Position numbers and translations under genes: made by a program. 24,000 nt of DNA from Candidatus Thorarchaeota archaeon. GTDB taxonomy: Archaea; Asgardarchaeota; Heimdallarchaeia; Hodarchaeales; Hodarchaeaceae. Shown here piece by piece: positions 1,620 to 23,228 of the stretch (positions within the stretch are counted from its first letter, which is position 1; the number at the start of each line of letters is the position of its first letter). The stretch covers positions 29,885-53,884 of the forward strand of contig JBHLRO010000011.1 of the NCBI GenBank assembly GCA_048882505.1. Direction: 5' to 3'. The notes under the pieces are model-generated. The model did no database searches. It had not been told where the DNA came from and worked only from the letters and a program-made list of their open reading frames with translations.

Positions 1620-3125
1620 GTGAAAAAACGCTATCTAACAATTCTTCTCATAATCTTCCTACAACAATCTATCATTCTTCCTGTTACCAATTACGATTTT
1701 GATTTTCAAACCCCCACTCCTGGCATCCCCAGTAGTTTAGATAATCCCTATGACTTCACATTCAACGTTTTACTCTCAGTCGATGATTCAAAATGGGCCC
1801 ATCATGTTGAACCCACCATGGCGATTGGGGATAATAACACAATATTTGTAGGATGGAAAAATGCGATTGAGCACGATGGAGGAGGAAGAGGAGTCTCATT
1901 TACATATTCAAAGGACAGCTTGAATTGGAGTTACCCCGACGATATGGCTCCAGCCTGGTCGACAGGGAGTGGTCAATCAGACCCTTGGATGGTTTATTTC
2001 AATCACACACTGTATTACTCCTATTTAGAGTTTTCCACAGGAACCCAGGATCCAGGACGAATTTCTTTTGCTCAAACTTCTGATTTAGGATTACATTGGA
2101 AACAAGTCAGGGCATCTTATGGCACAGGTGACTATGCAGATAAAGAAACCTTTGCAATTGGACATGATGGAGTAATTTATCTTGTCTATTCCGATGTTCA
2201 TTCAAGTGGTAGCACATCGAATGCCTGGGTCAGATTAACTCGCTCGTTTGACGGAGGTAATACCTTTGTCGATAATGTCACAATTTCTGACACCAAAGGG
2301 ATTGATATTAGTGCCAATGTGCTTCCAGGTAGGTCTGGCAACGTTTATTGTGTTTGGACACACTATAGCTGGGAAGAAGGAGAAGTTTCTCCTAATCCCG
2401 AGTTAAGTACATTAGTATACGATAACTCAACAGATTCTGGAAATACGTTTGGAAGAGATCGAGATTTTATCCCCGAATATAACGCCACTTGGTCAATGAG
2501 AAATCCTGAGAATAATAGGTCTGCAAAACATACAATCGCAATAATAAAACAAGAACCGATTACAGAAAGGCTGTATGTTACATGGGCTGATGTTTCCACT
2601 AATGTCAAGGTTCCTGAAAGCAACTGGGATGTGTTTTTTCGATATTCGGATGATCTTGGGATCACTTGGAGCGATATTGTTAGAGTGAACAGCCAGCTGG
2701 GCGCCAACCAATGGAATCCTGACATGGAATTTGATTCTAAAGGAAACGTGCACTTTGTTTATTATGATGAATCGTCTCCACAGGGAAGACACGTGAGACA
2801 TAGAATCTTTTATCCAGATCTTAATGAATTTTCTTCCGAAGCACAAGTGACAACAGAAGCGTCTTCTCCTGACTTTACAAGGCCTGGAGAGTACATGTCC
2901 ATTCGGATTGACTCAGACGATATCCCCCACATTGTTTGGACTGATGCAAGGAGCAATGCCTTGGACATATATTATACCAGTCCCAATTTAAGCGGCCCCG
3001 AATCAAAAAGCCCCTCATTTGCATCGTTACCTCTCTATCTTGCCTTTTTATTGATAGTTACAGTTGTTCTTAGGATAAGAAGATCAAAACGGAAAAATGT
3101 AAAACGGCGGCTCTTGCACAAATGA
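1620..3125 (+). CDS. Secreted, membrane-anchored BNR/Asp-box (sialidase-like beta-propeller) repeat protein
   Basis: 501-aa ORF with an N-terminal hydrophobic signal (LTILLIIFLQQSIILPV). It has repeated Asp-boxes (TSDLGLHW, SFDGGNTF, STDSGNTF, SDDLGITW). The C-terminus has a TM helix (LPLYLAFLLIVTVVL) followed by the basic tail RIRRSKRKNVKRR. Confidence 0.7.
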   Translation: MKKRYLTILLIIFLQQSIILPVTNYDFDFQTPTPGIPSSLDNPYDFTFNVLLSVDDSKWAHHVEPTMAIGDNNTIFVGWKNAIEHDGGGRGVSFTYSKDSLNWSYPDDMAPAWSTGSGQSDPWMVYFNHTLYYSYLEFSTGTQDPGRISFAQTSDLGLHWKQVRASYGTGDYADKETFAIGHDGVIYLVYSDVHSSGSTSNAWVRLTRSFDGGNTFVDNVTISDTKGIDISANVLPGRSGNVYCVWTHYSWEEGEVSPNPELSTLVYDNSTDSGNTFGRDRDFIPEYNATWSMRNPENNRSAKHTIAIIKQEPITERLYVTWADVSTNVKVPESNWDVFFRYSDDLGITWSDIVRVNSQLGANQWNPDMEFDSKGNVHFVYYDESSPQGRHVRHRIFYPDLNEFSSEAQVTTEASSPDFTRPGEYMSIRIDSDDIPHIVWTDARSNALDIYYTSPNLSGPESKSPSFASLPLYLAFLLIVTVVLRIRRSKRKNVKRRLLHK

Positions 3126-3522
3126 ATTAGACTATGTAAGCCCGAGCCATACGCTAGAGTTCGTAGTCATAATCAATTCCATGAAAAAGGATTTAGATAC
3201 TAGTCTCGGGTAAAAAATTCTGCTTCCCTCCGACCTAAGGCGTGTTTCCTGATAAAAGAATTAATTTTTGAATAGCTTACCAAGAGATTGTTTTTATGGA
3301 AAAAAATAAATTACAGTCTTTTTGACTTGGAAAAATCCCATGTGTGGTTTTAAAATTACGTTTTTTGGTCGTCCTTCTTTTTCGAACTTGTTTCTCGTTA
3401 TTACGGGGGAGCACTTCACCTGGGAATCTCATTCCACGATTACAGCGTTCCAAGAAACCAACATTTTAAAAACCTCCAGAACCATATTGCATCATAGGTT
3501 AAACCAGAAAACATCAAGTAGG

Positions 3523-3531
3523 TTAAATATA
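3523..3531 (+). promoter_or_regulatory. TATA-box-like element upstream of the ubiquitin-like gene
   Basis: TTAAATATA is centred about 30 nt upstream of the ATG at 3557. This spacing is compatible with a leaderless or short-leader archaeal transcript. It rests on motif and position only. Confidence 0.3.
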
Positions 3532-3556
3532 CCCATTCTTACAGGTTTGGTTTGAG

Positions 3557-3790
3557 ATGGAACTTCAAATAGTATCGGCTATTGGAGGAGGAGCTATTCT
3601 GATTGAGTGTGAAAAGAGTGACTCGATTGCAGCCATTAAAAATCGAGTAGCTACGCAAAAGAAAATTCCGCCCAGGTCAGTTATCTTGGTTTTTCAAGGT
3701 AAGCAGCTAGATGAAGGTGAGACTTTGAAATCAGTCGGGATTGAGGATCATGATAAGCTTTATATGATTACACGGACTACAGGGGGATAA
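3557..3790 (+). CDS. Ubiquitin-like protein (beta-grasp) ending in an exposed C-terminal Gly-Gly
   Basis: The 77-aa protein is colinear with ubiquitin (..KKIPPRSVILVFQGKQLDEGETLKSVGIEDHDKLYMITRTTGG versus ..[43 protein letters not shown]). The stop codon directly follows GG. Confidence 0.85.
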   Translation: MELQIVSAIGGGAILIECEKSDSIAAIKNRVATQKKIPPRSVILVFQGKQLDEGETLKSVGIEDHDKLYMITRTTGG

Positions 3791-3928
3791 GGGACAAGAT
3801 TTCCTCCTCTATGTCAAATTTCTTTTGAAGTTTTGATTGGCATCATCACATATAACAACCTACGAACCTTCTAGCGGTTACTTGGCTTTGAGCCTTAGAA
3901 TGGACCTAATTCTCGTAGGGTTATATCC

Positions 3929-4924
3929 ATGACCAAAGACCGCTATCTTCGCCAAATTCTTATACAAAATTGGGATCAAGAAAAAATTCAGGACAGTACT
4001 GCTGCATTAGTTGGTCTGGGAGCCCTTGGGAGCGTTGTTGCCGCATCGCTCGCCCTCGCTGGCGTCGGTCACCTCATCCTAATTGATTATGATACAGTCG
4101 AACTCAGTAACCTTAACCGTCAGTTATTATTCGGGCCCGCTGACGTTGGCCGATCTAAAGTTACTGTAGCAGCCCAAACAATCCGAAAAATGAACAAGGA
4201 AATCCAAATCGAGGCCTTCAACAAGCCTATTGAAAAAATTCCCAAGCTTAAGTTACGTTCATCAACGGTTCTGGTTGAAGGATTAGATACTTTTTCTTCT
4301 AGGCGGTGGGTTAATGCATTTGCGGTATCCTCCAAAATTCCTCTCGTCTCCGGGGGGATCTACGGATTTCTTGGCAATGTACAAGTCATCATTCCCTTTC
4401 AGACTGCATGCTTGGATTGCCAGTCATTGATCCCCGAGGAAGAGCTACAAAAAGCCTGTACACCATTTGGATCAGAACGGAAGGTAACCCGCAAAGAGGA
4501 AGATGTAGAAGACGTTCCCTCTGTATCTAGCGTGGCCTTTGTCATTGGAGGTTTAATGGCACAAGAGGCATTAAAAATAATCCTTGGTATTCCTCCAATG
4601 GCAGCTTACTTTTTCTGGGATGGTCGTGTAGGAGCGTTTACTAGTGTACCACTTGAACGAAGACCTGATTGTTTTATTTGCTCTACCAGGTTCCAATTAG
4701 ATATAATTCCTGTTAGGAGTCCTGCTAATCAATCGCTTCGTGATTTTGTCCACCAACTCCGGTACTCCTTTAATCTAGGGGAGAAAAGTATTATCATGGT
4801 TCAATCTTCAACGATTCCAATATCTGATTTACCTATCGTAGAGGTGTTCGAATCTGGGGATATTTTCCGTGTGATCGATCCCGTATTGGCATCCCCGCTG
4901 AAATTCAGAATACAGCTGGATTAG
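3929..4924 (+). CDS. E1-like ubiquitin-activating enzyme (ThiF/MoeB/UBA fold)
   Basis: The nucleotide-binding loop is GLGALGS and the ELSNLNRQ motif is present. Two CxxC pairs (CLDC, CFIC) match the MoeB/E1 zinc site. A candidate catalytic Cys lies in KACTPFG (codon 4457-4459), in the crossover-loop position after the first CxxC. An extra C-terminal domain of about 70 aa follows. Confidence 0.85.
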   Translation: MTKDRYLRQILIQNWDQEKIQDSTAALVGLGALGSVVAASLALAGVGHLILIDYDTVELSNLNRQLLFGPADVGRSKVTVAAQTIRKMNKEIQIEAFNKPIEKIPKLKLRSSTVLVEGLDTFSSRRWVNAFAVSSKIPLVSGGIYGFLGNVQVIIPFQTACLDCQSLIPEEELQKACTPFGSERKVTRKEEDVEDVPSVSSVAFVIGGLMAQEALKIILGIPPMAAYFFWDGRVGAFTSVPLERRPDCFICSTRFQLDIIPVRSPANQSLRDFVHQLRYSFNLGEKSIIMVQSSTIPISDLPIVEVFESGDIFRVIDPVLASPLKFRIQLD

Positions 4925-4938
4925 GCCATTTGAATAAA

Positions 4939-5697
4939 TCAGAGAAAGAAGTACAAAATCACGTAAACTAAAGCAACAAGCCCGCTGATGGCATAGCTAT
5001 ACAGATTACTTAGCAGATGTGCTGCCCTGATGCCGTTCCCACAGTTGTACGCTGTCCATCCGAAGAAGGGGATGTAGAGATATTCAAAAATAACGTAGCT
5101 CTCGCTAGTTAACGGGGTTATAGAAGTTATGGGAGAGCCCAAGGGAGCTCCTTGACCTAGAATTATGATTAACACGCTTATCAATAAGGATGCCGGGATG
5201 AGGGGCCCAAAAGAATACCCTACAATCCCCATCGTGTCTCTTAGACTTGCTTTTCCTCCTAATGTTTTCGCACTCAACCATACGACGATTCCACTCACAA
5301 TCCAGGCGAAAAGGGCGAAGAAGATGAATGCGAAACCCACGATCCACGGGGCAATGATGAAAAACCATAATGCCAGATCATGCCAGCTGGGGGTACTTGC
5401 TTTAATGACAAAAGCTCCCATGCGTAATGCGTACGCAACAGAAACAAGATACAGAACCATAATAGCACCAAGACGATCTGGATTTACTCCAATCTCCGCA
5501 AACAGGGTTTCACTCAGTCTAGGATCAGAAAAACTTCGCCAGATCCTGCTAAAGCGTTCTCGAAACGTGACCCGAACGCGATGAGTTTCTCGGACAATTT
5601 TCGTGAGATCAAATCCGCAGTACGGACAAAGTACATATCCTGCGGGACTTCGTTCTCCGCAATTTGGGCAAACGATCGACTCGGCCTCGGACATCAA
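4939..5697 (-). CDS. Zn-ribbon + multi-pass membrane protein, possibly Yip1-domain family
   Basis: The N-terminus has CPNCG..x..CPYCG (a zinc ribbon). It is followed by about 5 hydrophobic helices and the segment FSDPRLSETLFAEIGVNPDRLGAIMVLYL, which resembles the start of Yip1-domain proteins. The Yip1 assignment is by eye only. Confidence 0.6.
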   Translation of the reverse strand: MMSEAESIVCPNCGERSPAGYVLCPYCGFDLTKIVRETHRVRVTFRERFSRIWRSFSDPRLSETLFAEIGVNPDRLGAIMVLYLVSVAYALRMGAFVIKASTPSWHDLALWFFIIAPWIVGFAFIFFALFAWIVSGIVVWLSAKTLGGKASLRDTMGIVGYSFGPLIPASLLISVLIIILGQGAPLGSPITSITPLTSESYVIFEYLYIPFFGWTAYNCGNGIRAAHLLSNLYSYAISGLVALVYVILYFFL

Positions 5698-5886
5698 GTT
5701 ACCTCAGAATGGCCGCTAATAGAAAGCGGTTCGCTACTCGCTGAATGCCGTTTAATATCGTTTTTTGTATTTTTTAAACAAACCCTTTTAAGGTTTTTAA
5801 GACAAGGGTTTTTCCAGAGAGGATGTAATTATTCCTTTTCTGTAGTTATATCGTTATCCAGGTACGATTCGGAGCCCATTCAGCCA

Positions 5887-7116
5887 ATGGCTAGCGAAAA
5901 ACCGTCTCCTCAAGATGAATCCCAAGAAGAATCGATTCAGCGGCCAAAACGGGACGTTGATTATGCTGATTTAGCAACCAAGTTGGCAAACAATGCTGCT
6001 GCAAAGGATATTGAGGAATTTCATCTTAAGGTAAAAGGCGATCTTGAAGAGGCCCTATCAGGCAAAACTGATTATATGAGTATACTTGAGCAAGCGTATT
6101 CTTTAGAATCCAAATATCCGGAAGGTTTCCTCCGCTTTGGTTTAGATAAGAGACCTCCACAGACAGAGGATGTTTTTCTACTCGCTTGCTTTCGGAAGAG
6201 CGGTTATCCCCTGTTTACGTATCGTTTGGTCGATTCCATAGACATTCAAACTTCACTCTCATTTGTGTTAAATACCATAAAAAACTATACTCAGTATAAA
6301 CTAGGCGAACTGCTCGAAGTTCTCGCTTTGGAAAGCCAAACTATCCAGTTTTTCGTGGTAGAAGATGCCTACATCATCGCAATTGTAACTTCTAGGGGCG
6401 TTCAACGAGATCAAGTTGGAGCTCTTGCCCTTGATTTGAGTCACCTCATCAGGATGCACCCAAATCAAACTCCAGAGTCTAATCCTTCCTTTCGGGAGGC
6501 AATCGATCAAGTAATTGAAGCTACAAGAGCATCATTTGTTCGTGAGCACTATGCAGTCAAGATCGTTTTGGCAGGGGATGGAGCTGTTGGCAAAACATCA
6601 ATCCGAAGACAATACCTTGGCGAGGGATTCCAAGAAGATTATCAAATGACCATTGGGGCAGATTTGGCAACCAAAAATTCTTCAACAATATATCCAGGCG
6701 GGAAACAAATCAAATTTGTCATTTGGGATTTGGCTGGCCAACCCCGATTCGATGTCGTACGAAAAGCTTACTATAATAGTGCAGTTGGAGCCCTTGTTGT
6801 TTTTGACGTAACTCGTTTAGAATCCTTCCAAAATATCGTTGCTTGGATGAACGAGCTATGGAAGAATAATGGGAGGGGTCCTGTTCCGATAATCATTTTA
6901 GGTAATAAAGCTGATTTGCGCTCTAGTGAGATCTTGAGTGTAGAGGACAAGAAGGCTCAGGTATTTGTGGAACGCTTGTCTCAGATATCAAGACGATATA
7001 GAGGATTTCGTATTCATTATCTTCCTACAAGCGCAAAAACGGGGAAGAACATCGAAACTGCCTTTGAATTGCTTGGAGAGGCCATTATGGACTTTTTTGC
7101 GTCAGCAAAATTCTAA
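5887..7116 (+). CDS. Rab/Ras-like small GTPase with an N-terminal extension of about 220 aa (roadblock/longin-like)
   Basis: The C-terminal half has all G motifs in Rab order: GDGAVGKT (G1, from about 6577), TIG (G2), IWDLAGQ (G3), GNKADL (G4) and TSAK (G5). I place the start at ATG 5887 (MASEKP...) because the track ORF from 5581 overlaps the divergent gene and the intergenic promoter region. The N-terminal domain shows an alternating beta/alpha pattern (FLLACFRKSGYPLFTYRL ... IQFFVVEDAYIIAIVTSRG). Confidence 0.8.
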   Translation: MASEKPSPQDESQEESIQRPKRDVDYADLATKLANNAAAKDIEEFHLKVKGDLEEALSGKTDYMSILEQAYSLESKYPEGFLRFGLDKRPPQTEDVFLLACFRKSGYPLFTYRLVDSIDIQTSLSFVLNTIKNYTQYKLGELLEVLALESQTIQFFVVEDAYIIAIVTSRGVQRDQVGALALDLSHLIRMHPNQTPESNPSFREAIDQVIEATRASFVREHYAVKIVLAGDGAVGKTSIRRQYLGEGFQEDYQMTIGADLATKNSSTIYPGGKQIKFVIWDLAGQPRFDVVRKAYYNSAVGALVVFDVTRLESFQNIVAWMNELWKNNGRGPVPIIILGNKADLRSSEILSVEDKKAQVFVERLSQISRRYRGFRIHYLPTSAKTGKNIETAFELLGEAIMDFFASAKF

Positions 7117-7277: not shown

Positions 7278-8021
7278 ATGGATCGTGATTTTATTCTAGC
7301 AAGGGAAGCCCAGCTTGTATATTCTAATTCTGCTGCAGCCGGTTTTGATCCTGTAGGCGATACTTTGGACAGGTGGCAAGGCACCTTGACATACACAACA
7401 AGTCAAGGGCGGGCACGCTTCGTGTTTGAAATTTTTCTGCCAGAATATTACCCGAATGTTCCTCCCGTGGTTACTGCACCAGGGTTTATGGATCATCCTA
7501 ATGTGGATGAAGATGGTTTTGTTCAGCTACGCATCATGGATAACTGGCGAGCTGAATTCCACCTATACCAGGTAATAATCGCACTCAAAAATCTCATGTC
7601 TCGTGTTCCTCCCAGACCTAAGGGTGAAGCGGCCAAAGATGCCAAAACTGTAAGAGAAACGATGGCTAGATTAGCCCCTATAACCCCCGCCACCCCCGCG
7701 CAACAAGAATCCGTAGAAACTCGAGTTCTCCGAACAGAACTAAATAGTTTGTCTGATCAACTACGAGAAAAAGAAGAAGAGCTTTCTCGGTTGAGGGCCC
7801 AACATACTGTTCAAGCTAGTTCTCCGGAGCCATCTAGATCTACATCTCTCTCTGAAAGAGAAAGATTAGAATCTGAACGTCTTGCAATCTCGGATTTGCT
7901 GTCCTCTTTAGAAGACCGCTATTCTCGCGGAGACATTTCCATTTTCGAGTATTCACGATTATTTCGTCAATACATGAAGGAGCTTTATGTCGTTAGAAAA
8001 CAACTAGGATATCTGAGCTGA
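7278..8021 (+). CDS. vps23: ESCRT-I Vps23/TSG101-like protein: UEV (catalytically inactive E2 fold) + Pro-rich linker + coiled coil + steadiness-box-like C-terminus
   Basis: The E2-fold landmarks are RWQGTL, YPNVPPVV and HPNVDEDGFVQL. Gln (codon 7524-7526) sits exactly where E2 enzymes carry the catalytic Cys (HPN+8). The protein contains no Cys at all. The linker is PPRPKGE...PITPATPAQQ, the coiled coil is TRVLRTELNSLSDQLREKEEELSRLRA, and the C-terminus is RGDISIFEYSRLFRQYMKELYVVRKQL. Confidence 0.75.
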   Translation: MDRDFILAREAQLVYSNSAAAGFDPVGDTLDRWQGTLTYTTSQGRARFVFEIFLPEYYPNVPPVVTAPGFMDHPNVDEDGFVQLRIMDNWRAEFHLYQVIIALKNLMSRVPPRPKGEAAKDAKTVRETMARLAPITPATPAQQESVETRVLRTELNSLSDQLREKEEELSRLRAQHTVQASSPEPSRSTSLSERERLESERLAISDLLSSLEDRYSRGDISIFEYSRLFRQYMKELYVVRKQLGYLS

Positions 8022-8027
8022 TCACAA

Positions 8028-8651
8028 GTGATAACGTTTCCATCTAATCTATCTCAAAGGTGGGATTTGGAGGGGCGACTATTTGCCTGTATAAGTACCC
8101 TCGATCTCTTATCCCGAACTTACGAACGAGGGGAACTTGAGCCTAATATTTTTCACAAACAGTATAAGAGTTTGTTAACGACAATTGTGGAAGTTAGGGC
8201 TTCTCTTGAACCATATCACTTTGATTTGGACGCTTTTATTAAAGAAGAACAAGTTGACCAATTATACCCATTCGGATTAGAAAAACTCCGTAGGACCGAA
8301 GGTACAGATGACACGGTTCAAAACCGCATAGATTACAAGCGTATCACCCAACTCCCGTCACAAGTGGCTGAATTTGTAGCTCACGCTATTGAGCTTCTAG
8401 ATTTGCTAAAATTGGAGGCTATTGCGACCGTAGATCGTATCCTTCCATACTTAGATGAACTATATGCCATTTTATCCAGTTCCGCCATCTACGGCGAAGA
8501 TCATTGGGTAACCAAAGATATCACAGAATGGATTGCATGGATGGACAAACAGAAAGCGGGAATTCTTCTAAAAAAGGATGAACTCGAAAAATTAGAGCTT
8601 CAAGCCGCGCGCTGGCTCTCGGACTTTCGTCGCGAACTTAAGAATCTTTGA
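8028..8651 (+). CDS. vps28: ESCRT-I Vps28-like protein
   Basis: GTG start 6 nt after the preceding stop. The N-terminal core is LDLLSRTYERGELEPNIFHKQYKSLL...FDLDAFIKE...YPFGLEKLRR. The C-terminal four-helix region is VAEFVAHAIELLDLLKL...ILPYLDELY...ITEWIAWMDKQ...DELEKLELQAARWLSDF. Both are colinear with the two eukaryotic Vps28 domains. Confidence 0.8.
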   Translation: MITFPSNLSQRWDLEGRLFACISTLDLLSRTYERGELEPNIFHKQYKSLLTTIVEVRASLEPYHFDLDAFIKEEQVDQLYPFGLEKLRRTEGTDDTVQNRIDYKRITQLPSQVAEFVAHAIELLDLLKLEAIATVDRILPYLDELYAILSSSAIYGEDHWVTKDITEWIAWMDKQKAGILLKKDELEKLELQAARWLSDFRRELKNL

Positions 8652-8674: not shown

Positions 8675-10021
8675 TTAGAAATGATCGAACAGGTTTGTTT
8701 TTCCGGATCGAATCAAAAGATCAGTTATCCTTTCATTGATTTTAGCTAAATCCAATTCGAATTGTTTTACTAGATCAAAATAATCTCGATTTGTCACTTT
8801 TCGACCTCCGGTCTTGAGTTCTTCTAAGGCTTTTATGGTTGCCATTTTTTGGATACGAAGATCACGAAGATGTTCATCTACCACTTCTGAAACGTAATTA
8901 GGTGTTCTTTCAGGAAATAATGGGGAAGCAGAATCAAGCACTGTATGATCTTCCTTTGTATTCATTGAGAAGTTTAAGGCTGAGAGAATTTCCTCCTGAT
9001 ACACCTCGGAAGACCAATCCCGGAGTGGTTTATGCGTGTAATTATTGTTAGGTTCTCCGTAATAGCCTATCTGGAGACTTTTTACAATTTGATCTAGTGT
9101 GCCGCTATCCGAATACAGCCCATACTCGCGTTTCATTGCTTGAATCATTAATTTACGACGTTTAAGAAGGCCTTCCTCGACAATTTTTACATCGACAAGA
9201 TCCCCAGTCCCAAATTCGTCATAAAGGACAATTTCATTACCTAATACGTTTTTTCTTTTATTTTGCAGAAACATAATACGGTTGGTAGTGATTAACATAT
9301 TTACTCTTGTCTTACGAACACTTTCACCGTTCAATTCAACTTTTGGGAACAGACCGATCCCTAGTTCTCCTGGGCCAAAACCAAAAACATCCGAAAATTG
9401 GCGTAGTTCCCTTTCCATCTTATGAATGGCTGTATATTCGGAGGATAAATCATCTAATAGGTCCTCAATAGATCCAAGCCTCATTTGAACGGTTTGATCA
9501 AACGTTTGGACCTGTTTTTGAAAAAGGGTTAATTGGAGGGCAAGGTCGGAAGAACTGCTTGCCAATCCCTTTACTTCACTGATATTTTGATAGTATCGAT
9601 GTAGTTTGGTTGAAAACTCCTTGAATTCCTCTAGGATAAATTCCTCAATCTCCTTGGTGTCAGAGAACATGCGGTCTATCTGTTCTATGGGAATTAGGAA
9701 TTTTGTCATCAATGGACGTAGCTGGGACTCTAAATGACCCAATCTCTTTAAAAGAACAACAGGACGGTAGGCTACCTGCTTTAAAGCCTTCTTCAAGACA
9801 AATAGATGCTCTAAAAGTTCAGTTTTCAAATCTAAATTAGATTCTTCTCTGTTAACAATACCTGAACCACATTTACACGTTATAAGAAAACCTTGGTCTC
9901 CTCGTTTGACTCCACACAAGGCACAAAAAATTGCTTGACAGTCTTGGCACTTATACCCCTTCCCCTTCTGGATCTGAACCCCACAAAAGGAACAAAAAAG
10001 CTCATTAGCAGAGGATGACAT
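8675..10021 (-). CDS. Uncharacterised ESCRT-cluster protein: N-terminal C4C4 cross-brace Zn finger + coiled coil + PH/GLUE-like domain + steadiness-box-like C-terminus
   Basis: 448-aa ORF. The Zn finger follows C-x2-C-x11-C-x2-C-x4-C-x2-C-x12-C-x-C (aa 10-51, nt 9869-9994) and contains the FYVE-like string KCQDCQAIFCALCG. A long helical region spans aa 60-210. The segment VNMLITTNRIMFLQ...GDLVDVKIVEEGLLKRRKLMIQ (nt about 9068-9388) resembles GLUE/GRAM-type PH domains. The C-terminus GRKVTNRDYFDLVKQFELDLAKI parallels the Vps23-like C-terminus. Confidence 0.7.
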   Translation of the reverse strand: MSSSANELFCSFCGVQIQKGKGYKCQDCQAIFCALCGVKRGDQGFLITCKCGSGIVNREESNLDLKTELLEHLFVLKKALKQVAYRPVVLLKRLGHLESQLRPLMTKFLIPIEQIDRMFSDTKEIEEFILEEFKEFSTKLHRYYQNISEVKGLASSSSDLALQLTLFQKQVQTFDQTVQMRLGSIEDLLDDLSSEYTAIHKMERELRQFSDVFGFGPGELGIGLFPKVELNGESVRKTRVNMLITTNRIMFLQNKRKNVLGNEIVLYDEFGTGDLVDVKIVEEGLLKRRKLMIQAMKREYGLYSDSGTLDQIVKSLQIGYYGEPNNNYTHKPLRDWSSEVYQEEILSALNFSMNTKEDHTVLDSASPLFPERTPNYVSEVVDEHLRDLRIQKMATIKALEELKTGGRKVTNRDYFDLVKQFELDLAKINERITDLLIRSGKTNLFDHF

Positions 10022-10222
10022 TCTCGAGAACCAGGCCGGTGTATAGCGATCCAGACTTCCTCCACTAAGCCACCCTTAAAAAGGAAGAAACTTCGGACAT
10101 GTCATGATCCCCCGTTGGTTATTGTTTCTAAAACATTTTAAGTCGATCAACTTGAGTCTTTATTGCCTGTGATCAGAGAAATAAAACATGATTTAACTGA
10201 ATTTCATAACGGGTGCATTTTG

Positions 10223-10939
10223 ATGGGCTTAAGACGAATTGAAGAAAAGCTCCTTCGTGAAAAAGAGATGAAAAAGAAAGGAGCCGAAATGGCGTTAACA
10301 TCTCTCGAGAAAATGAGCCAACAGATTCATTCTCTACATAGGGATCTCCAAGATCTTGAAAAGAAATACGAAACTGATTTTAAAAAGAATCCTGCTTTGA
10401 GTAAACAACTCATGAATCTACGGGAGGAGTTAGGCCTTCCCCGCGCCATTGGAATTTATGACGTGGGTGAAAAGCCCTCATTCATTCAACGCTTAAAAGG
10501 AAAGGATGAATATCTGAATTTCCTTGCGTTACGGATCTTGAAAATCGGAAAGAATGAACGACACAGGACCGGCGGGCTTCTAAGTACCACCGAGATTATC
10601 CTAAAACTAAATGATGAGAGTCAAGGCATAACTGTGGCTATTTCTGATATTTCGCAGGCCTTAGATCTTCTTGTCTCGAATGGATTGGTTCATGATATTC
10701 GGGAGCTAGGTGGAATGCAGGTAGTTGAATTCATTGATCCAAACCTAAGCCAAGACCATCATACAATCCTGAACCTAGCGGCTCGATATAACGGGGAAAT
10801 AAATCTTACAGATTTGATCAAAGAAACAGAATGGAGTATTGAGCGCATAAATCAGACTCTGTCACCGTTAATACAGAAAAAAATTGTACTACGCTCCGAA
10901 ACATTAGATGGGGTAGTTCTGTCATTCCCTGGCATGTAA
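10223..10939 (+). CDS. vps22: ESCRT-II EAP30-domain protein (Vps22/Vps36-like, tandem winged helix)
   Basis: From ATG 10223 the sequence reads MGLRRIEEKLLREKEMKKKGAEMALTSLEKMSQQIHSLHRDLQDLEKKYETDFKKNPALSKQLMNLREELGLP. This is colinear with the Vps22/SNF8 N-terminus (RRGVG..KK..E.KYKERG...L..MSKQL..F...LEEFA.KH..EI.KNPEFR.QF..MC..IGVDP). The track ORF starts at a TTG at 10163, which is an alternative start. Confidence 0.8.
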   Translation: MGLRRIEEKLLREKEMKKKGAEMALTSLEKMSQQIHSLHRDLQDLEKKYETDFKKNPALSKQLMNLREELGLPRAIGIYDVGEKPSFIQRLKGKDEYLNFLALRILKIGKNERHRTGGLLSTTEIILKLNDESQGITVAISDISQALDLLVSNGLVHDIRELGGMQVVEFIDPNLSQDHHTILNLAARYNGEINLTDLIKETEWSIERINQTLSPLIQKKIVLRSETLDGVVLSFPGM

Positions 10940-11140
10940 AAAACATCTTCGAGGGAGTTTGATCGTAACAAATCATCCCAAGAAAGTGAAACCGTTTCCC
11001 GTTTCCTTAGATGCTCTTGATGAGGTACTCATAGGAAAGTCTTAAATTCTAAAGACAATTATGCATAAACAATCTCTTATTCGTAGAGGATGTATGGATT
11101 AAGAGCAGTTTCAAAACGCTCTGTCCAGCAATAATCATAA

Positions 11141-11157
11141 GTATATTGTTATATAAA
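11141..11157 (+). promoter_or_regulatory. A/T-rich TATA-like region upstream of the ESCRT-III operon
   Basis: GTATATTGTTATATAAA contains two overlapping TATA-like motifs 15-30 nt upstream of the TTG start at 11172. This fits a leaderless or very short leader transcript. It is motif-only evidence. Confidence 0.3.
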
Positions 11158-11171
11158 GGGTTGAAACTTAT

Positions 11172-11843
11172 TTGAAACGCCTAAGAGGGTTTTTAACGAA
11201 GAACAAACCGAGTTCATCGACTGAAACCAAGGCAAAGCTCAAACGTACTATCAATCAGATGGAAGTAAAGATACGCAACTATCAACGGCAAGCAGATGAG
11301 CAGTATGAGCTGGCTCGTACCCTGTTAAAAGCGGGAAACAAGCCTGGGGCTCATGAGGCCTTGAAACGGAGAGAACTATATCTCACCCAGGTCACTCGGA
11401 CTCATTCTAAAATCGCTAATCTTCAACGCACAATAGATACTCTGGATATTTCTGCGGATAACGTAACATTAACGGAGACCTTAGCATCCGCACAAACTGC
11501 AATCGATTCAAACATAGCATCGGCCTCTCCCGAGCGAACTGAAGAAGTTATGATGGGCCTAGAGAGTTCTATGGAAATGGTAGCTGATATGGAAGATGCC
11601 CTTACGGACACAACCATTACAGAAATCGGCATGGATGTAGAGGCTGATGATCGGATCTCTCAACAAATGGCGGAACTCGAAGCCGAGCTTGCCTCTGGGG
11701 TTCCCGCATCCGATACTCCTGTAACCTCCTCCCCAGACATGGCTTCCGCTCAAACCGAAGAAGGCACCACTACCAGTCGCGAAGTGGACAAAAAGAAGCT
11801 TGATGAGATGCGAAAGCAAATTGAAGAAGGATTGAGGTCCTAA
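11172..11843 (+). CDS. ESCRT-III Snf7-family protein, Vps20/32/60 (CHMP4)-like
   Basis: TTG start and a basic N-terminus (MKRLRGFLTKNK). The core ALKRRELYLTQVTRTHSKIANLQRTIDTLDISADNVTLTETLASAQTAI is colinear with the Snf7/CHMP4 alpha2-alpha3 region (ALKRKKRYEKQL..IDGTLSTIEFQREALENA..NTEVL). The C-terminal half is acidic. Confidence 0.8.
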   Translation: MKRLRGFLTKNKPSSSTETKAKLKRTINQMEVKIRNYQRQADEQYELARTLLKAGNKPGAHEALKRRELYLTQVTRTHSKIANLQRTIDTLDISADNVTLTETLASAQTAIDSNIASASPERTEEVMMGLESSMEMVADMEDALTDTTITEIGMDVEADDRISQQMAELEAELASGVPASDTPVTSSPDMASAQTEEGTTTSREVDKKKLDEMRKQIEEGLRS

Positions 11844-19192: not shown

Positions 19193-20161
19193 ATGGCAAC
19201 CATGAAAGGGGATAAAGCAAGACCCCAAAAAAAGACCCAAGTCGAGGACGAAGAAGAAATCCTCGAATGTAAAAATTGCGGCTCTAATGATATCGTCGCC
19301 GACGAAAACCGCGGTGAACTCATCTGCGAAAAATGCGGCTATGTCCTCGAGACCCGCCTCATCGATGAAGGCCCCGAATGGCGCGCCTTCAACTCCGAAG
19401 AACGCGATAAACGCTCCCGCGTCGGCTCCCCCTCCACCTTCTCAGTTCACGATAAAGGGCTCTCTACCATTATTGGGTATGAGAACCGCGACACCTTCGG
19501 CAATAAACTCACCGCCTCCCGTCGCGCCCAGATTTACCGTCTCCGGAAATGGCAGATCCGTACCCGTGTCCATTCTTCCATGGACCGCAACCTCGCCTTC
19601 GCGATGTCCGAAATGGACCGCCTGGCATCTCAACTCGGTATCCCCCGGAACGTCAAGGAAACCGCCGCCATCATCTACCGCAAAGCCATCGAAAAACGCC
19701 TCGTTCGCGGCCGCTCCATCGAAGCCATGGTCGCTGCGACCATCTACGCCTCAGCCCGCGTCCGTCGCGTCCCCCGTACCCTCGATGAAATCGCGAAAGA
19801 AAGCCGTATCACCAAAAAAGAACTCGGCCGCTGCTACCGCCTCCTCCTCCGCGAACTCTATCTTAATATCCCTCTCGCGTCCCCCATCGACTATCTCGTC
19901 CGCTTCGGCACCGAACTCCGCCTCTCTGGCGTCTGTCAACGGAACGCCGCCGATACCCTCAAACGCGCTAAAGCCGCTGGCCTTACCGCAGGCAAAGACC
20001 CCACTGGCCTGGCCGCTGCTGCTATCTACATTTCTGGTATTATCCACGGTGAACGGCGTACTCAACGCGAGATTTCAGAAGTGGCGCATGTGACAGAGGT
20101 AACTGTCAGAAACCGATATAAAGAGCTGGTACGAAAGCTTAACATTGAGATTACGATTTAA
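19193..20161 (+). CDS. tfb: Transcription initiation factor B (TFB/TFIIB)
   Basis: The N-terminal Zn ribbon is CKNCGS..x..CEKCGYV. It is followed by the B-reader/linker GPEWRAF and two cyclin-fold repeats (..RNLAFAMSEMDRLASQLGIP..; ..DYLVRFGTELRLS..AAAAIYIS..RTQREISEVAHVTEVTVRNRYKEL). Confidence 0.92.
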   Translation: MATMKGDKARPQKKTQVEDEEEILECKNCGSNDIVADENRGELICEKCGYVLETRLIDEGPEWRAFNSEERDKRSRVGSPSTFSVHDKGLSTIIGYENRDTFGNKLTASRRAQIYRLRKWQIRTRVHSSMDRNLAFAMSEMDRLASQLGIPRNVKETAAIIYRKAIEKRLVRGRSIEAMVAATIYASARVRRVPRTLDEIAKESRITKKELGRCYRLLLRELYLNIPLASPIDYLVRFGTELRLSGVCQRNAADTLKRAKAAGLTAGKDPTGLAAAAIYISGIIHGERRTQREISEVAHVTEVTVRNRYKELVRKLNIEITI

Positions 20162-20540: not shown

Positions 20541-21503
20541 ATGGGAGAACAGAAATTGAATCAAATAAGTAACCAAACAGGAGCAATGAAATCCATTGTA
20601 CTTGGATTTATCCTTATTTTCAATCTTATCGGGATTTATATGGGAGTGGAGCTTGCAGGCGTGCCATTTAGCCAGCAGACTAGTTTTACAATCGACAAAC
20701 AAACTCAATACGGATATATTAGAAAATATCCCGCGTTGTATGAATTACTTGTAATGGCAAATGCTTCTAATACCGAAATTATTAATTGTACAGCTTGGGT
20801 TGGTGTAAGTGACGTTCCCCTGACACAAGCATTTCAACTCGGCCCCGGAGATAATTTCTCAACTAGTAAGAGCCTCAATTATTTCTGGTATAGTATTTCT
20901 TTCTTCTTTAAGAATACCTCGGAACCCCAACGTGTGGATATTAGGATGGAGGGACACTCAGGAACCTTTGAAGAACTTCTTGCTAGTCCTGGTACATTTT
21001 ATGGAGCGGGAGGTATTTTTTATCTCGTTCAGTATATCATTCCAGCTTTAATATCGATAGTCATTCTGGGTCCTATTCACTTTATTAATGCCATGTATAA
21101 GTTCACAGAGAGTAAGCAGGAAGTAGCGAGGTATCTTAGTCAAAATTTCCTTCCTCCATTTATATCATTGATTTTATTCTGGATTACGGGATTTGGGATA
21201 TTGTTATTGGCAGTTGGGTATTATTTCGGGGTATTAGTAATAACTAGAATTATAGAAACAGTCCAACCGTTGAAGTCAACCGTAATGGCAACGGGTGGTG
21301 TGACATTCTTAGTTACTGCCTTCATTTTGGATCGGCTTTATCAACCCTTGACTCCCCAAATCTTTAATGAGCAGGTAATCTGGGGTTTTTTTCCTATCTA
21401 TCCGCTCATAATCACAATAACGGTTTCAGGTATGTTGTTGCTCTTTGTAGGCCTCCCAAGAGGGCAAAACCGAAGCCATAAAACGAGGTTGCATGAAGAC
21501 TAA
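20541..21503 (+). CDS. Multi-pass integral membrane protein, unknown function
   Basis: 320-aa ORF. It has an N-terminal TM helix (IVLGFILIFNLIGIYMGV), an extracytoplasmic segment of about 110 aa, then about 5 hydrophobic helices. I recognise no catalytic motifs. Confidence 0.6.
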   Translation: MGEQKLNQISNQTGAMKSIVLGFILIFNLIGIYMGVELAGVPFSQQTSFTIDKQTQYGYIRKYPALYELLVMANASNTEIINCTAWVGVSDVPLTQAFQLGPGDNFSTSKSLNYFWYSISFFFKNTSEPQRVDIRMEGHSGTFEELLASPGTFYGAGGIFYLVQYIIPALISIVILGPIHFINAMYKFTESKQEVARYLSQNFLPPFISLILFWITGFGILLLAVGYYFGVLVITRIIETVQPLKSTVMATGGVTFLVTAFILDRLYQPLTPQIFNEQVIWGFFPIYPLIITITVSGMLLLFVGLPRGQNRSHKTRLHED

Positions 21504-22001: not shown

Positions 22002-23228
22002 TCAATAGACTTTAGCTGACCTTAATGAACCCTGACACACCGAACATTTGGTCAGGCCCGCCTGTTGGCTTTCTTGATAGCAGTTCTGACAGACTGCACG
22101 TTGACAAGACGCACACACCTGATGTGGATCCTTTTTCGGGTAGAACCTTAGGCATAGGCTGCAAAAAAACCGATCTTTTGCCTTTAGAATTTCCACTTGT
22201 TCCGCAGGCACATACTCAATGGTCTGGGAACCTACGGAATACAACGGCGCCAGTTCGACGTTTTGCTCCCGAATGGTTTGCAGAATACAGAGGATTTCCT
22301 GGGCATGGGAGAGAGTGGGATCGGGAATAGAATCCCCGAATACTTTTGTGATGGTGGGGGTGATGAAAGTATCGATTAAATTCTTTATGGTGTCACCTGC
22401 CAGCTGAAAAAGACCCACAAGCGGATTTTCCGATGGAGGGTCGTAAGTTCGAACATAATTATCCGTGATTTTTGTCACATTCTCAATAGTTAGCTCGGGC
22501 GGATCAGGGATTGGCAATTTCCAGTTATCATGGACTAGGATGTCTTCCAAAGAGATTTTTTCAGCTACCGGGAGGTCTGAAAGGTATTGACGGATTTCCG
22601 CATCTAGTTCCTTTTTCCGGATGTCATCGAGATCCGTGGTTTTGGGGAGATGCAGGCGTCTTTCCTTATAATAGGTCATGCCGACCCTTGTGGATAGGAT
22701 TCCTAAACGACATTCCCTGGCGAGTTCGAGTAGGGAAACCGTTTCACTCGATGTCGGTTGATTCTTCAGTCTGTGATGCGTTTGGATAATTCGCACCACA
22801 TTGATTTCGATCTCAGATCTGTCAAAAAGATCATAATAATCGGAAATTTTCTTTTCGGATAACTGGATCACGGTATTACAGAAATTAACGAGCTCTCGCC
22901 CATTAGAGAGCGAATAATTGAGTCTGATGACGATATCCGTTAAGTTCAATTGGTCATTCTTGATAAACGGGAGAATTAAGATGGATTGAGCATCTAATTG
23001 CTGGATTTGGTCTTGAGTATATTTTTTCAATTGTTTGGGTCTAGGCGGGTGATTGAAGTAATGGATTACCTCGTCTAAGGATGCAGAAGGTATTTTCAGG
23101 TCTAAAAACATTTCCTCATTGGTAGGCAACCGCTGGTGCTCATACACAAAGTGAAAAATACGGGTAGAGAATTCATCTAGCTCGTTACTAGGAAGAGAAT
23201 ACTGTTTCTCCCGTTTGAACAATCTCAT
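22002..23228 (-). CDS. Uncharacterised protein: repeated helical (winged-helix-like) units + C-terminal C4C4 cross-brace Zn finger
   Basis: 408-aa ORF. The C-terminal pattern is C-x2-C-x12-C-x2-C-x4-C-x2-C-x11-C-x2-C (nt about 22035-22163), the same architecture as the N-terminal finger of the 448-aa protein at 8675-10021. The upstream part shows 4-5 similar-length helix-rich units. Confidence 0.65.
   Translation of the reverse strand: MRLFKREKQYSLPSNELDEFSTRIFHFVYEHQRLPTNEEMFLDLKIPSASLDEVIHYFNHPPRPKQLKKYTQDQIQQLDAQSILILPFIKNDQLNLTDIVIRLNYSLSNGRELVNFCNTVIQLSEKKISDYYDLFDRSEIEINVVRIIQTHHRLKNQPTSSETVSLLELARECRLGILSTRVGMTYYKERRLHLPKTTDLDDIRKKELDAEIRQYLSDLPVAEKISLEDILVHDNWKLPIPDPPELTIENVTKITDNYVRTYDPPSENPLVGLFQLAGDTIKNLIDTFITPTITKVFGDSIPDPTLSHAQEILCILQTIREQNVELAPLYSVGSQTIEYVPAEQVEILKAKDRFFCSLCLRFYPKKDPHQVCASCQRAVCQNCYQESQQAGLTKCSVCQGSLRSAKVY

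Follow-up and report, generated by a model that had tools for sequence, protein, structure and literature searches.

The closest described counterpart of the protein considered here is Znr_CC_PH_SB, an Asgard-specific family (asCOG cog.011556) whose members combine zinc ribbons, a coiled coil, a pleckstrin homology (PH) domain and a steadiness box (SB) (Makarova et al., 2024, mBio; PMC10936438). [quoted passage not shown] The example listed in the accessible part of that source is a 650-aa protein of Lokiarchaeum GC14_75 (As_004-p_01543, contig positions 11247..13199 in Table S2), which has three zinc ribbons and does not adjoin Vps28. The family is named 'Steadiness/Vps23 box' in a preprint that also notes the Hodarchaeia gene cluster with Yip1 and a Rab-like GTPase (bioRxiv 10.1101/2023.07.25.550441), and the gene studied here is unmentioned there. 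As for the eukaryotic components, Asgard archaea have been reported to be without Vps37 and Vps36 (Hatano et al., 2022; PMC9192718), and Asgard Vps22 proteins to have an SB-like N-terminus (PMC10936438). In the present work we analyzed a stretch of 24,000 nucleotides (hereafter the window) from a metagenome-assembled genome (MAG) of the Hodarchaeales (contig JBHLRO010000011.1, positions 29,885 to 53,884), which holds a complete Asgard ubiquitin-ESCRT cluster, and in particular a gene for a 448-aa protein lying between Vps28 and EAP30.

An earlier note, made from the sequence alone, offered two candidate functions for this protein, a third subunit of the ESCRT-I headpiece or an adaptor like Vps36 or ESCRT-0. 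It did not recognize the protein as any named family. This view had to be abandoned, as the same domain order has been published as Znr_CC_PH_SB, cog.011556 (PMC10936438). The protein has the same architecture as that family, to which it is likened by domain order and description, not by sequence; architecture and ESCRT-I hypothesis were both already published in 2024, and ours is not the discovery of a new kind of protein. We propose, with a probability of roughly 0.55, that it is the Hodarchaeales form of the Asgard-specific zinc finger/coiled coil/PH/steadiness-box ESCRT protein, in which a C-terminal hairpin would act as the third element of the ESCRT-I headpiece and the PH domain, stalk and finger would reach membrane or cargo.

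Position and conservation of the gene

The open reading frame (ORF) is a genuine gene, as judged from a ratio of non-synonymous to synonymous substitutions (dN/dS) of 0.085 and from its full-length orthologs. The latter, one at 93% and the others at 43-50% identity, are found in 20 species-representative genomes and further metagenomic contigs, and are carried by 23 other loci. With the 93%-identical ortholog (locus L005) as the reference for all such ratios, per-domain dN/dS values lay between 0.00 and 0.13, every domain being constrained except for the linker described below. The NCBI deposit with 100% identity is the hypothetical protein ACFFFG_10415, from a MAG labelled Thorarchaeota. Searches of the whole protein against Pfam and NCBIfam returned noise only, with no matching model. 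HMMER searches of PDB sequences found nothing significant either, whether the profile represented the entire protein, its PH region or the hairpin.

The earlier note had placed the gene between Vps28-like and EAP30-like genes, and both neighbours were confirmed by Pfam (Table 1). The gene occupies the same place in 23/23 orthologous loci from approximately 20 species-level genomes: Vps28 adjoins it in every one of these and EAP30 in 22/23, the remaining contig (L017) ending 240 bases short of the place of EAP30. It runs against an array whose other genes share one direction, converging with Vps28 and diverging from EAP30. Its description as the only minus-strand gene applies to the ESCRT block and not to the larger ubiquitin-ESCRT cluster, since the Yip1-like gene is also on the minus strand. 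At one locus (L003, a Hodarchaeota MAG), approximately 8 kb interrupts the EAP30 / target / Vps28 arrangement on both sides of the gene (2313-7056 and 9456-11588); this stretch, possibly a mobile insertion, encodes a tetratricopeptide repeat (TPR) protein and small ORFs that match nothing in Pfam. A 665-aa neighbour at another locus (L026), checked as a possible related or split part, was unrelated.

When 1.84 billion representative proteins were searched with a HMMER profile, just 16 relatives were obtained; two further profile searches recovered Hodarchaeales-like proteins only. Every relative was found in a Hodarchaeota, Hodarchaeales or Heimdall MAG. Near-identical or orthologous contigs of a single MAG series (P0001, P0039, P0043, P0020; L007, L008) are variously labelled Thorarchaeota, Promethearchaeota, Hermodarchaeota or Hodarchaeota; this inconsistent submitter taxonomy is therefore unfit for inferring the phyletic spread of the family. 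The tiny size of the HMMER-detectable family would suit a membrane- or nucleic-acid-binding protein that has no ESCRT function and owes its position to historical accident in a narrow clade, all the more as gene order among Hodarchaeales-like genomes alone could partly reflect shared ancestry. In addition, the gene lies outside the cluster in an LC_3-like clade (P0035, P0036, P0041), where it is found beside PGM, Trm5 and GlmS, five to six genes from an FttA-EAP30-ESCRT-III block. Nevertheless, distant relatives with 16-23% identity retain the same domain order, and adjacency to Vps28 persists at that divergence and after rearrangement of the remaining cluster. Three such relatives, at 20-23% identity, adjoin Vps28 (P0031, P0034, P0039), with P0034 being co-directional in the order Vps23-Vps28-X and P0039 (L027 8001-9230) lying between EAP30 and Vps28, even though it has no finger. 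The link to ESCRT genes thus outlasts deep divergence, within a detectable family that is limited to Hodarchaeales-like genomes. Given also a hairpin whose similarity to the steadiness box of Vps23 is specific, and a combination of PH domain and zinc finger that parallels eukaryotic ESCRT-0 and ESCRT-II adaptors, we give historical accident the least credence of all the explanations considered.

Domain architecture of the protein

The whole protein was modelled with AlphaFold2 (AF2) from a 26-sequence alignment, giving a mean predicted local distance difference test (pLDDT) score of 75.9 and a predicted template modelling (pTM) score of 0.57. The model ends in a hairpin of two helices (residues 376-404 and 411-439). 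It had been suggested that the C-terminus parallels that of the neighbouring Vps23-like protein, and the motif concerned indeed forms the core of a profile-profile alignment. Specifically, a hairpin profile built from 12 sequences, divergent members included, could be aligned to the C-terminal part of Hodarchaeales Vps23-like proteins; the 44-47 aligned columns take in the two helices as well as the loop, in register (hhalign P 0.0007-0.0012). Seven control helical regions of the same cluster gave P values of at least 0.064. The observed score of 22.9 compared with 12.7 for a reversed decoy, and was reached by 0/200 column-shuffled and 1/200 heptad-block-shuffled decoys. The P value was also better than that of the positive control, in which the Vps23 C-terminus was aligned with the Vps28 N-terminus (P 0.0044). 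By these controls and decoys, the resemblance between the hairpin and the steadiness box of Vps23 is a real and specific, if modest, signal. A more diverse alignment was needed to reach a P of approximately 0.001, narrower Hodarchaeales-only alignments giving 0.11.

Upstream of the hairpin, the earlier note had seen a heptad-like helix of some 150 aa followed by a PH/GLUE-like segment. The former is helical in the model, yet consists of three separate long helices (65-106, 112-149 and 154-209, pLDDT 86-94) rather than one coiled coil. The latter was borne out by the confidently predicted PH topology, which comprises seven strands at residues 221-303 and a helix at 306-321, so that the beta-fold on which this part of the note depended is present in the model. 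By Foldseek, there were 99 matches in the PDB at E<=1e-3; of the 50 listed, nearly all were PH-containing chains. The top matches were DH-PH chains of RhoGEFs, with template modelling (TM) scores of 0.20-0.33 and root-mean-square deviations (rmsd) of 16-24 A; the protein has no RhoGEF Pfam match, and its likeness to DH-PH chains is confined to local helices and the PH domain. Among the 50 matches listed, the best single-domain PH chain was the yeast Vps36 GLUE domain (2cay_B; E 8.6e-5, TM 0.54, 16% identity). An ITTxR strand is conserved in the PH domain, as part of a motif, L-I-T-T-x-R-I, that we take to resemble the GRAM/GLUE type. Conserved basic residues also cluster in this domain (R236, K237, R248, K255, R256, K287, R288), a pattern that would be compatible with the binding of anionic lipids.

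The GLUE match bears on an alternative in which the protein is a trans-acting analogue of Vps36 GLUE, working in ESCRT-II or bridging to it. Its hairpin would then bind the helical, steadiness-box-like N-terminal region of the EAP30/Vps22-like subunit, with PH domain and finger supplying the membrane, ubiquitin and Vps28 contacts that are made in yeast Vps36 by GLUE and NZF. Consistent with such a role, Vps36 is missing from Asgard archaea (PMC9192718) and the N-terminus of Asgard Vps22 is SB-like (PMC10936438); moreover, a divergent promoter region is common to the gene and EAP30 in all loci extending that far, and the gene of the LC_3-like clade is found near the EAP30-ESCRT-III block rather than Vps28. 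The hairpin, however, gave a P of 0.064 against the EAP30 N-terminus, vs 0.001 against Vps23 (hhalign). The PH domain is without an NZF insertion, the AF2 model has no winged-helix elements and the protein has no EAP30 Pfam match. Divergent relatives, furthermore, stay beside Vps28 and not always beside EAP30. Overall, we regard a role of this kind in ESCRT-II as unlikely.

At the N-terminus, eight cysteines (C10, C13, C25, C28, C33, C36, C49, C51) are arranged as CxxC-x11-CxxC-x4-CxxC-x12-CxC. Seven of these are invariant and C51 is nearly so in 25 sequences that include relatives at approximately 20% identity, the family consensus being YCSFCG...QKCxDCGAAFCxxCA...KCPCGS. In the AF2 model, the pairs C10/C13, C25/C28, C33/C36 and C49/C51 are surrounded by short beta-hairpin knuckles and a one-turn helix. 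A sub-model of residues 1-67 (pLDDT 78) had no Foldseek match in the PDB at E<=1e-3. The top, non-significant match was to the FYVE-type finger of Rim2 (E 0.084, probability 0.95); further non-significant matches were to EEA1 FYVE, melanophilin, rabphilin-3A, RUFY FYVE, Pygo PHD, RING1B and ZZ, and the best of them all fall in the two-zinc cross-brace class. Weak sequence matches (E ~0.1) to FYVE, C1, B-box and RING domains, the SAKURA and EEA1 FYVE domains among them, agree with these structural matches. Of the 8-Cys cross-brace, FYVE-like finger that had been described, the eight conserved cysteines and the FYVE/RING-class nearest folds (non-significant) therefore stand, cross-brace zinc ligation being favoured. 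The family consensus likewise upholds the statement that the RRHHCR phosphoinositide motif is lacking; the FYVE motifs for binding phosphatidylinositol 3-phosphate (PI3P), i.e., WxxD, R(R/K)HHCR and RVC, are absent from the protein. As modelled, the finger is thus of the FYVE/RING class and predicted to bind zinc and, given the absence of these motifs, is not a lipid-binding FYVE domain. One subclade (P0039, P0037, P0046) has no N-terminal zinc finger, only the last CxC being retained in P0037; a 105-aa ORF upstream in L027, checked as a split-off finger, was unrelated.

The Rab effectors among the top finger matches (Rim2, melanophilin and rabphilin-3A) point to another candidate function, i.e., that of an effector or regulator of the Rab-like or Arf-like GTPases of the cluster. 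In analogy with rabphilin, Rim and melanophilin, in which a FYVE-type finger is flanked by long helices, the finger and helices would bind the GTP form, the PH domain would attach to membrane, and ESCRT would be recruited by the hairpin. In support, nearly all loci keep a Rab-like GTPase and a Yip1-family protein beside ESCRT-I. On the other side, no finger match reached E<=1e-3, no Rab-binding motif was identified, and DH-PH RhoGEFs are matched by the whole model only locally (TM 0.2-0.33, rmsd ~20 A). The subclade without a finger, moreover, still keeps its position in the ESCRT cluster. We consider a GTPase effector very improbable.

The most conserved stretch of the family lies between PH domain and linker, at residues 324-349 (PxRDWSSE[IV]YQExILSALNF), with RDWSSE[IV]YQE as its core. 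Here, R334, D335, W336, S338, E339 and Q342 are invariant (alignment A1), W336 is nearly invariant even in distant relatives at approximately 20% identity, and dN is 0. The motif is poorly modelled, with low pLDDT at 324-332 and a short helix at 339-349. It is followed by the linker, in which column identity is 0.43 and pLDDT falls below 50 at residues 354-378. With a dN/dS of approximately 1.1, the linker evolves neutrally and is the sole unconstrained part of the gene.

The surrounding ubiquitin-ESCRT cluster

The features of the locus are collected in Table 1.

Table 1. Features of the window, with positions counted from its first nucleotide; residue numbers refer to the 448-aa protein.
Feature	Residues	Position	Strand	Basis and remarks
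Target gene, 448 aa		8675..10021	(-)	ATG-to-stop ORF; zinc finger, helical stalk, PH domain, conserved motif, linker, hairpin
N-terminal two-zinc finger (predicted)	7-58	9848..10003	(-)	Cys pattern, conservation, AF2 sub-model, Foldseek
Three long helices (stalk or three-helix region)	65-209	9395..9829	(-)	AF2; dN/dS 0.044
PH-like domain	215-322	9056..9379	(-)	AF2 fold, Foldseek PDB matches
Conserved motif	324-349	8975..9052	(-)	Alignment A1, dN, AF2
Disordered variable linker	350-375	8897..8974	(-)	pLDDT, column identity, dN/dS
C-terminal helical hairpin, steadiness-box-like	376-439	8705..8896	(-)	AF2, hhalign
Ubiquitin, 77 aa		3557-3790	(+)	Pfam ubiquitin E 3e-14; ends exactly ...TGG
ThiF-type E1		3929-4924		
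Yip1 membrane protein with zinc ribbon		4939-5697	(-)	
Rab-like GTPase		5581-7116	(+)	ORF 511 aa
Vps23-like UEV-coiled-coil-steadiness-box protein		7278..8021	(+)	Pfam UQ_con 1e-13, UEV 1e-4, Vps23_core weak (E 0.11)
Vps28		8028..8651	(+)	Pfam VPS28 E 1e-13; convergent with target, 23 nt gap
Divergent intergenic region target/EAP30		10022..10162		Extends to ~10222 if EAP30 starts at M21
EAP30 (Vps22/36-like) ESCRT-II subunit		10163..10939	(+)	Pfam EAP30 E 2e-17; divergent from target
Two Snf7/ESCRT-III genes, Vps4, Vps25, ribosomal protein S2				In this order after EAP30

In the Vps23-like protein, the UQ_con match was stronger than that to UEV (ubiquitin E2 variant), and the E2 active-site Cys is replaced (HPNVDEDGFVQLRIM); on account of this replacement, it is predicted to be a catalytically dead UEV. 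The EAP30 ORF starts at a TTG 20 codons upstream of an ATG at 10223 (M21), and it is the latter that matches the 238-aa orthologs. The intergenic region between the target and EAP30 is probably in the order of 200 bp, and contains A/T-rich, TTTAAAA-like boxes facing both ways.

The ESCRT cluster begins with the ubiquitin gene, which lies a short way upstream of the ThiF-type E1 and whose product would need no C-terminal processing because of the ...TGG at its end. The ORF of the Rab-like GTPase and the 5' end of the Yip1 gene overlap. Since gene calls for the GTPase orthologs give 399-405 aa, translation probably starts approximately 100 codons downstream. The approximately 200 N-terminal residues ahead of the Ras domain have no Pfam match. 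No RNA families were detected in an Rfam scan of the window. Between 19001 and 20000, over a TFIIB (TFB) gene at 19193-20161, GC content rises to 0.56, and GC skew drops to -0.23; downstream of TFB, two ORFs (20541-21503 on the plus and 22002-23228 on the minus strand) have no Pfam match.

Proposed role and comparison with known ESCRT proteins

In the reading that we prefer, i.e., a Hodarchaeales ESCRT-I protein of the Znr_CC_PH_SB type, the C-terminal hairpin would pack with the hairpins of the UEV-Vps23-like and Vps28 proteins, and would provide the third ESCRT-I-type headpiece element, the structural role of eukaryotic Vps37. The flexible linker would tie this anchor to the basic-surfaced PH domain and to the N-terminal finger on its rigid three-helix stalk. 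We infer that PH domain and finger bind membrane and/or ubiquitinated cargo or another partner, and that archaeal ESCRT-I may thereby gain the membrane and cargo contacts that ESCRT-0 and Vps36 GLUE give eukaryotes.

Several observations weigh against this proposal. The hhalign probability of the hairpin-Vps23 alignment is a modest 20-27%, and the hairpin has no similarity to the Vps28 N-terminus (hhalign P 0.52). HMMER searches of Pfam and the PDB with the hairpin gave no Vps23_core, Mod_r, CdvA or VPS28 match; Mod_r was absent from 12 C-terminal fragments at a threshold as loose as E<=10, and also from the whole protein. As a control, a profile of the genuine Vps23-like C-terminus likewise failed to find Vps23/TSG101 among PDB sequences, making these negatives, and those of the whole-protein and PH profiles, uninformative. 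The sequence matches of the PH region are weak (bPH_3 0.0048, PH_NF1 0.07), so that its identity as a PH domain rests on predicted structure. There are also relatives that do not conform, namely the LC_3-like proteins whose genes do not adjoin Vps28 and the subclade without a zinc finger. Finally, the odinarchaeal ESCRT-I that was reconstituted consists of a Vps23 dimer and Vps28, with no third protein (PMC9192718).

That biochemical work on Asgard ESCRT-I left open how the archaeal complex contacts membrane and how ESCRT-I is linked to ESCRT-II (PMC9192718). With its plausible headpiece hairpin, PH domain and zinc finger, the present protein is a concrete candidate for the missing link. Being short and well conserved, with clear domain boundaries, it is also a good target for reconstitution. 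A more far-reaching version, which we put forward as doubtful speculation, is that ESCRT-I would be a true heterotrimer in the archaeal order currently placed closest to eukaryotes, its third subunit uniting a Vps37-type headpiece hairpin with a PH domain like that of GLUE and a finger of the FYVE class. A single protein would then hold the recognition of membrane and cargo that was later spread over ESCRT-0, Vps37 and Vps36 in eukaryotes, and might be an evolutionary source of Vps36 GLUE or of Vps37.

Compared with the described families, the protein could be assigned neither to Mod_r nor to Vps36 nor to DH-PH proteins, and it is without PI3P-binding FYVE motifs. It is closest to Znr_CC_PH_SB. 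Both have a zinc-binding N-terminus (predicted in ours), then a coiled-coil or helical region and, after it, a PH domain and a C-terminal steadiness-box hairpin; both, too, are Asgard-specific, have no eukaryotic counterpart and have genes that accompany those of ESCRT. Four of six features of that family were found in it, namely the helical region, the PH domain, the steadiness-box hairpin and the ESCRT gene neighbourhood. The two differ in that our protein has 448 aa and one eight-Cys finger with two predicted zinc sites, vs 650 aa and three zinc ribbons; in the accessible part of Table S2 of that study (PMC10936438), the Heimdall LC_3 relative does not carry the cog.011556 label.

Like FYVE and the FYVE-type fingers of Rab effectors, the N-terminus has four Cys pairs at FYVE-like spacing and a short helix from the third pair, whereas its fourth pair is CxC, not CxxC. 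With Vps36 GLUE (2CAY), the protein has in common a PH fold combined with zinc-binding modules in one ESCRT protein. Its finger, however, is N-terminal and of FYVE/RING class, while the NZF of Vps36 is inserted in the PH domain, and it ends in a hairpin, without winged-helix domains. As regards Vps37 (Mod_r) and the Vps23-TSG101 core, the hairpin of approximately 2 x 29 residues is profile-similar to the steadiness box of the Vps23-like protein of the same genome, and the gene is found beside Vps23 and Vps28. In contrast to both, the protein gave no Mod_r or Vps23_core match and carries a zinc finger and a PH domain, which neither of them has. Unlike in Vps37, moreover, PH domain and disordered linker, rather than a coiled-coil stalk, come directly before the hairpin. 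Taken together, the protein may be likened to a hybrid, in which a hairpin of Vps37 type is joined to the PH domain and zinc finger of Vps36 GLUE or ESCRT-0.

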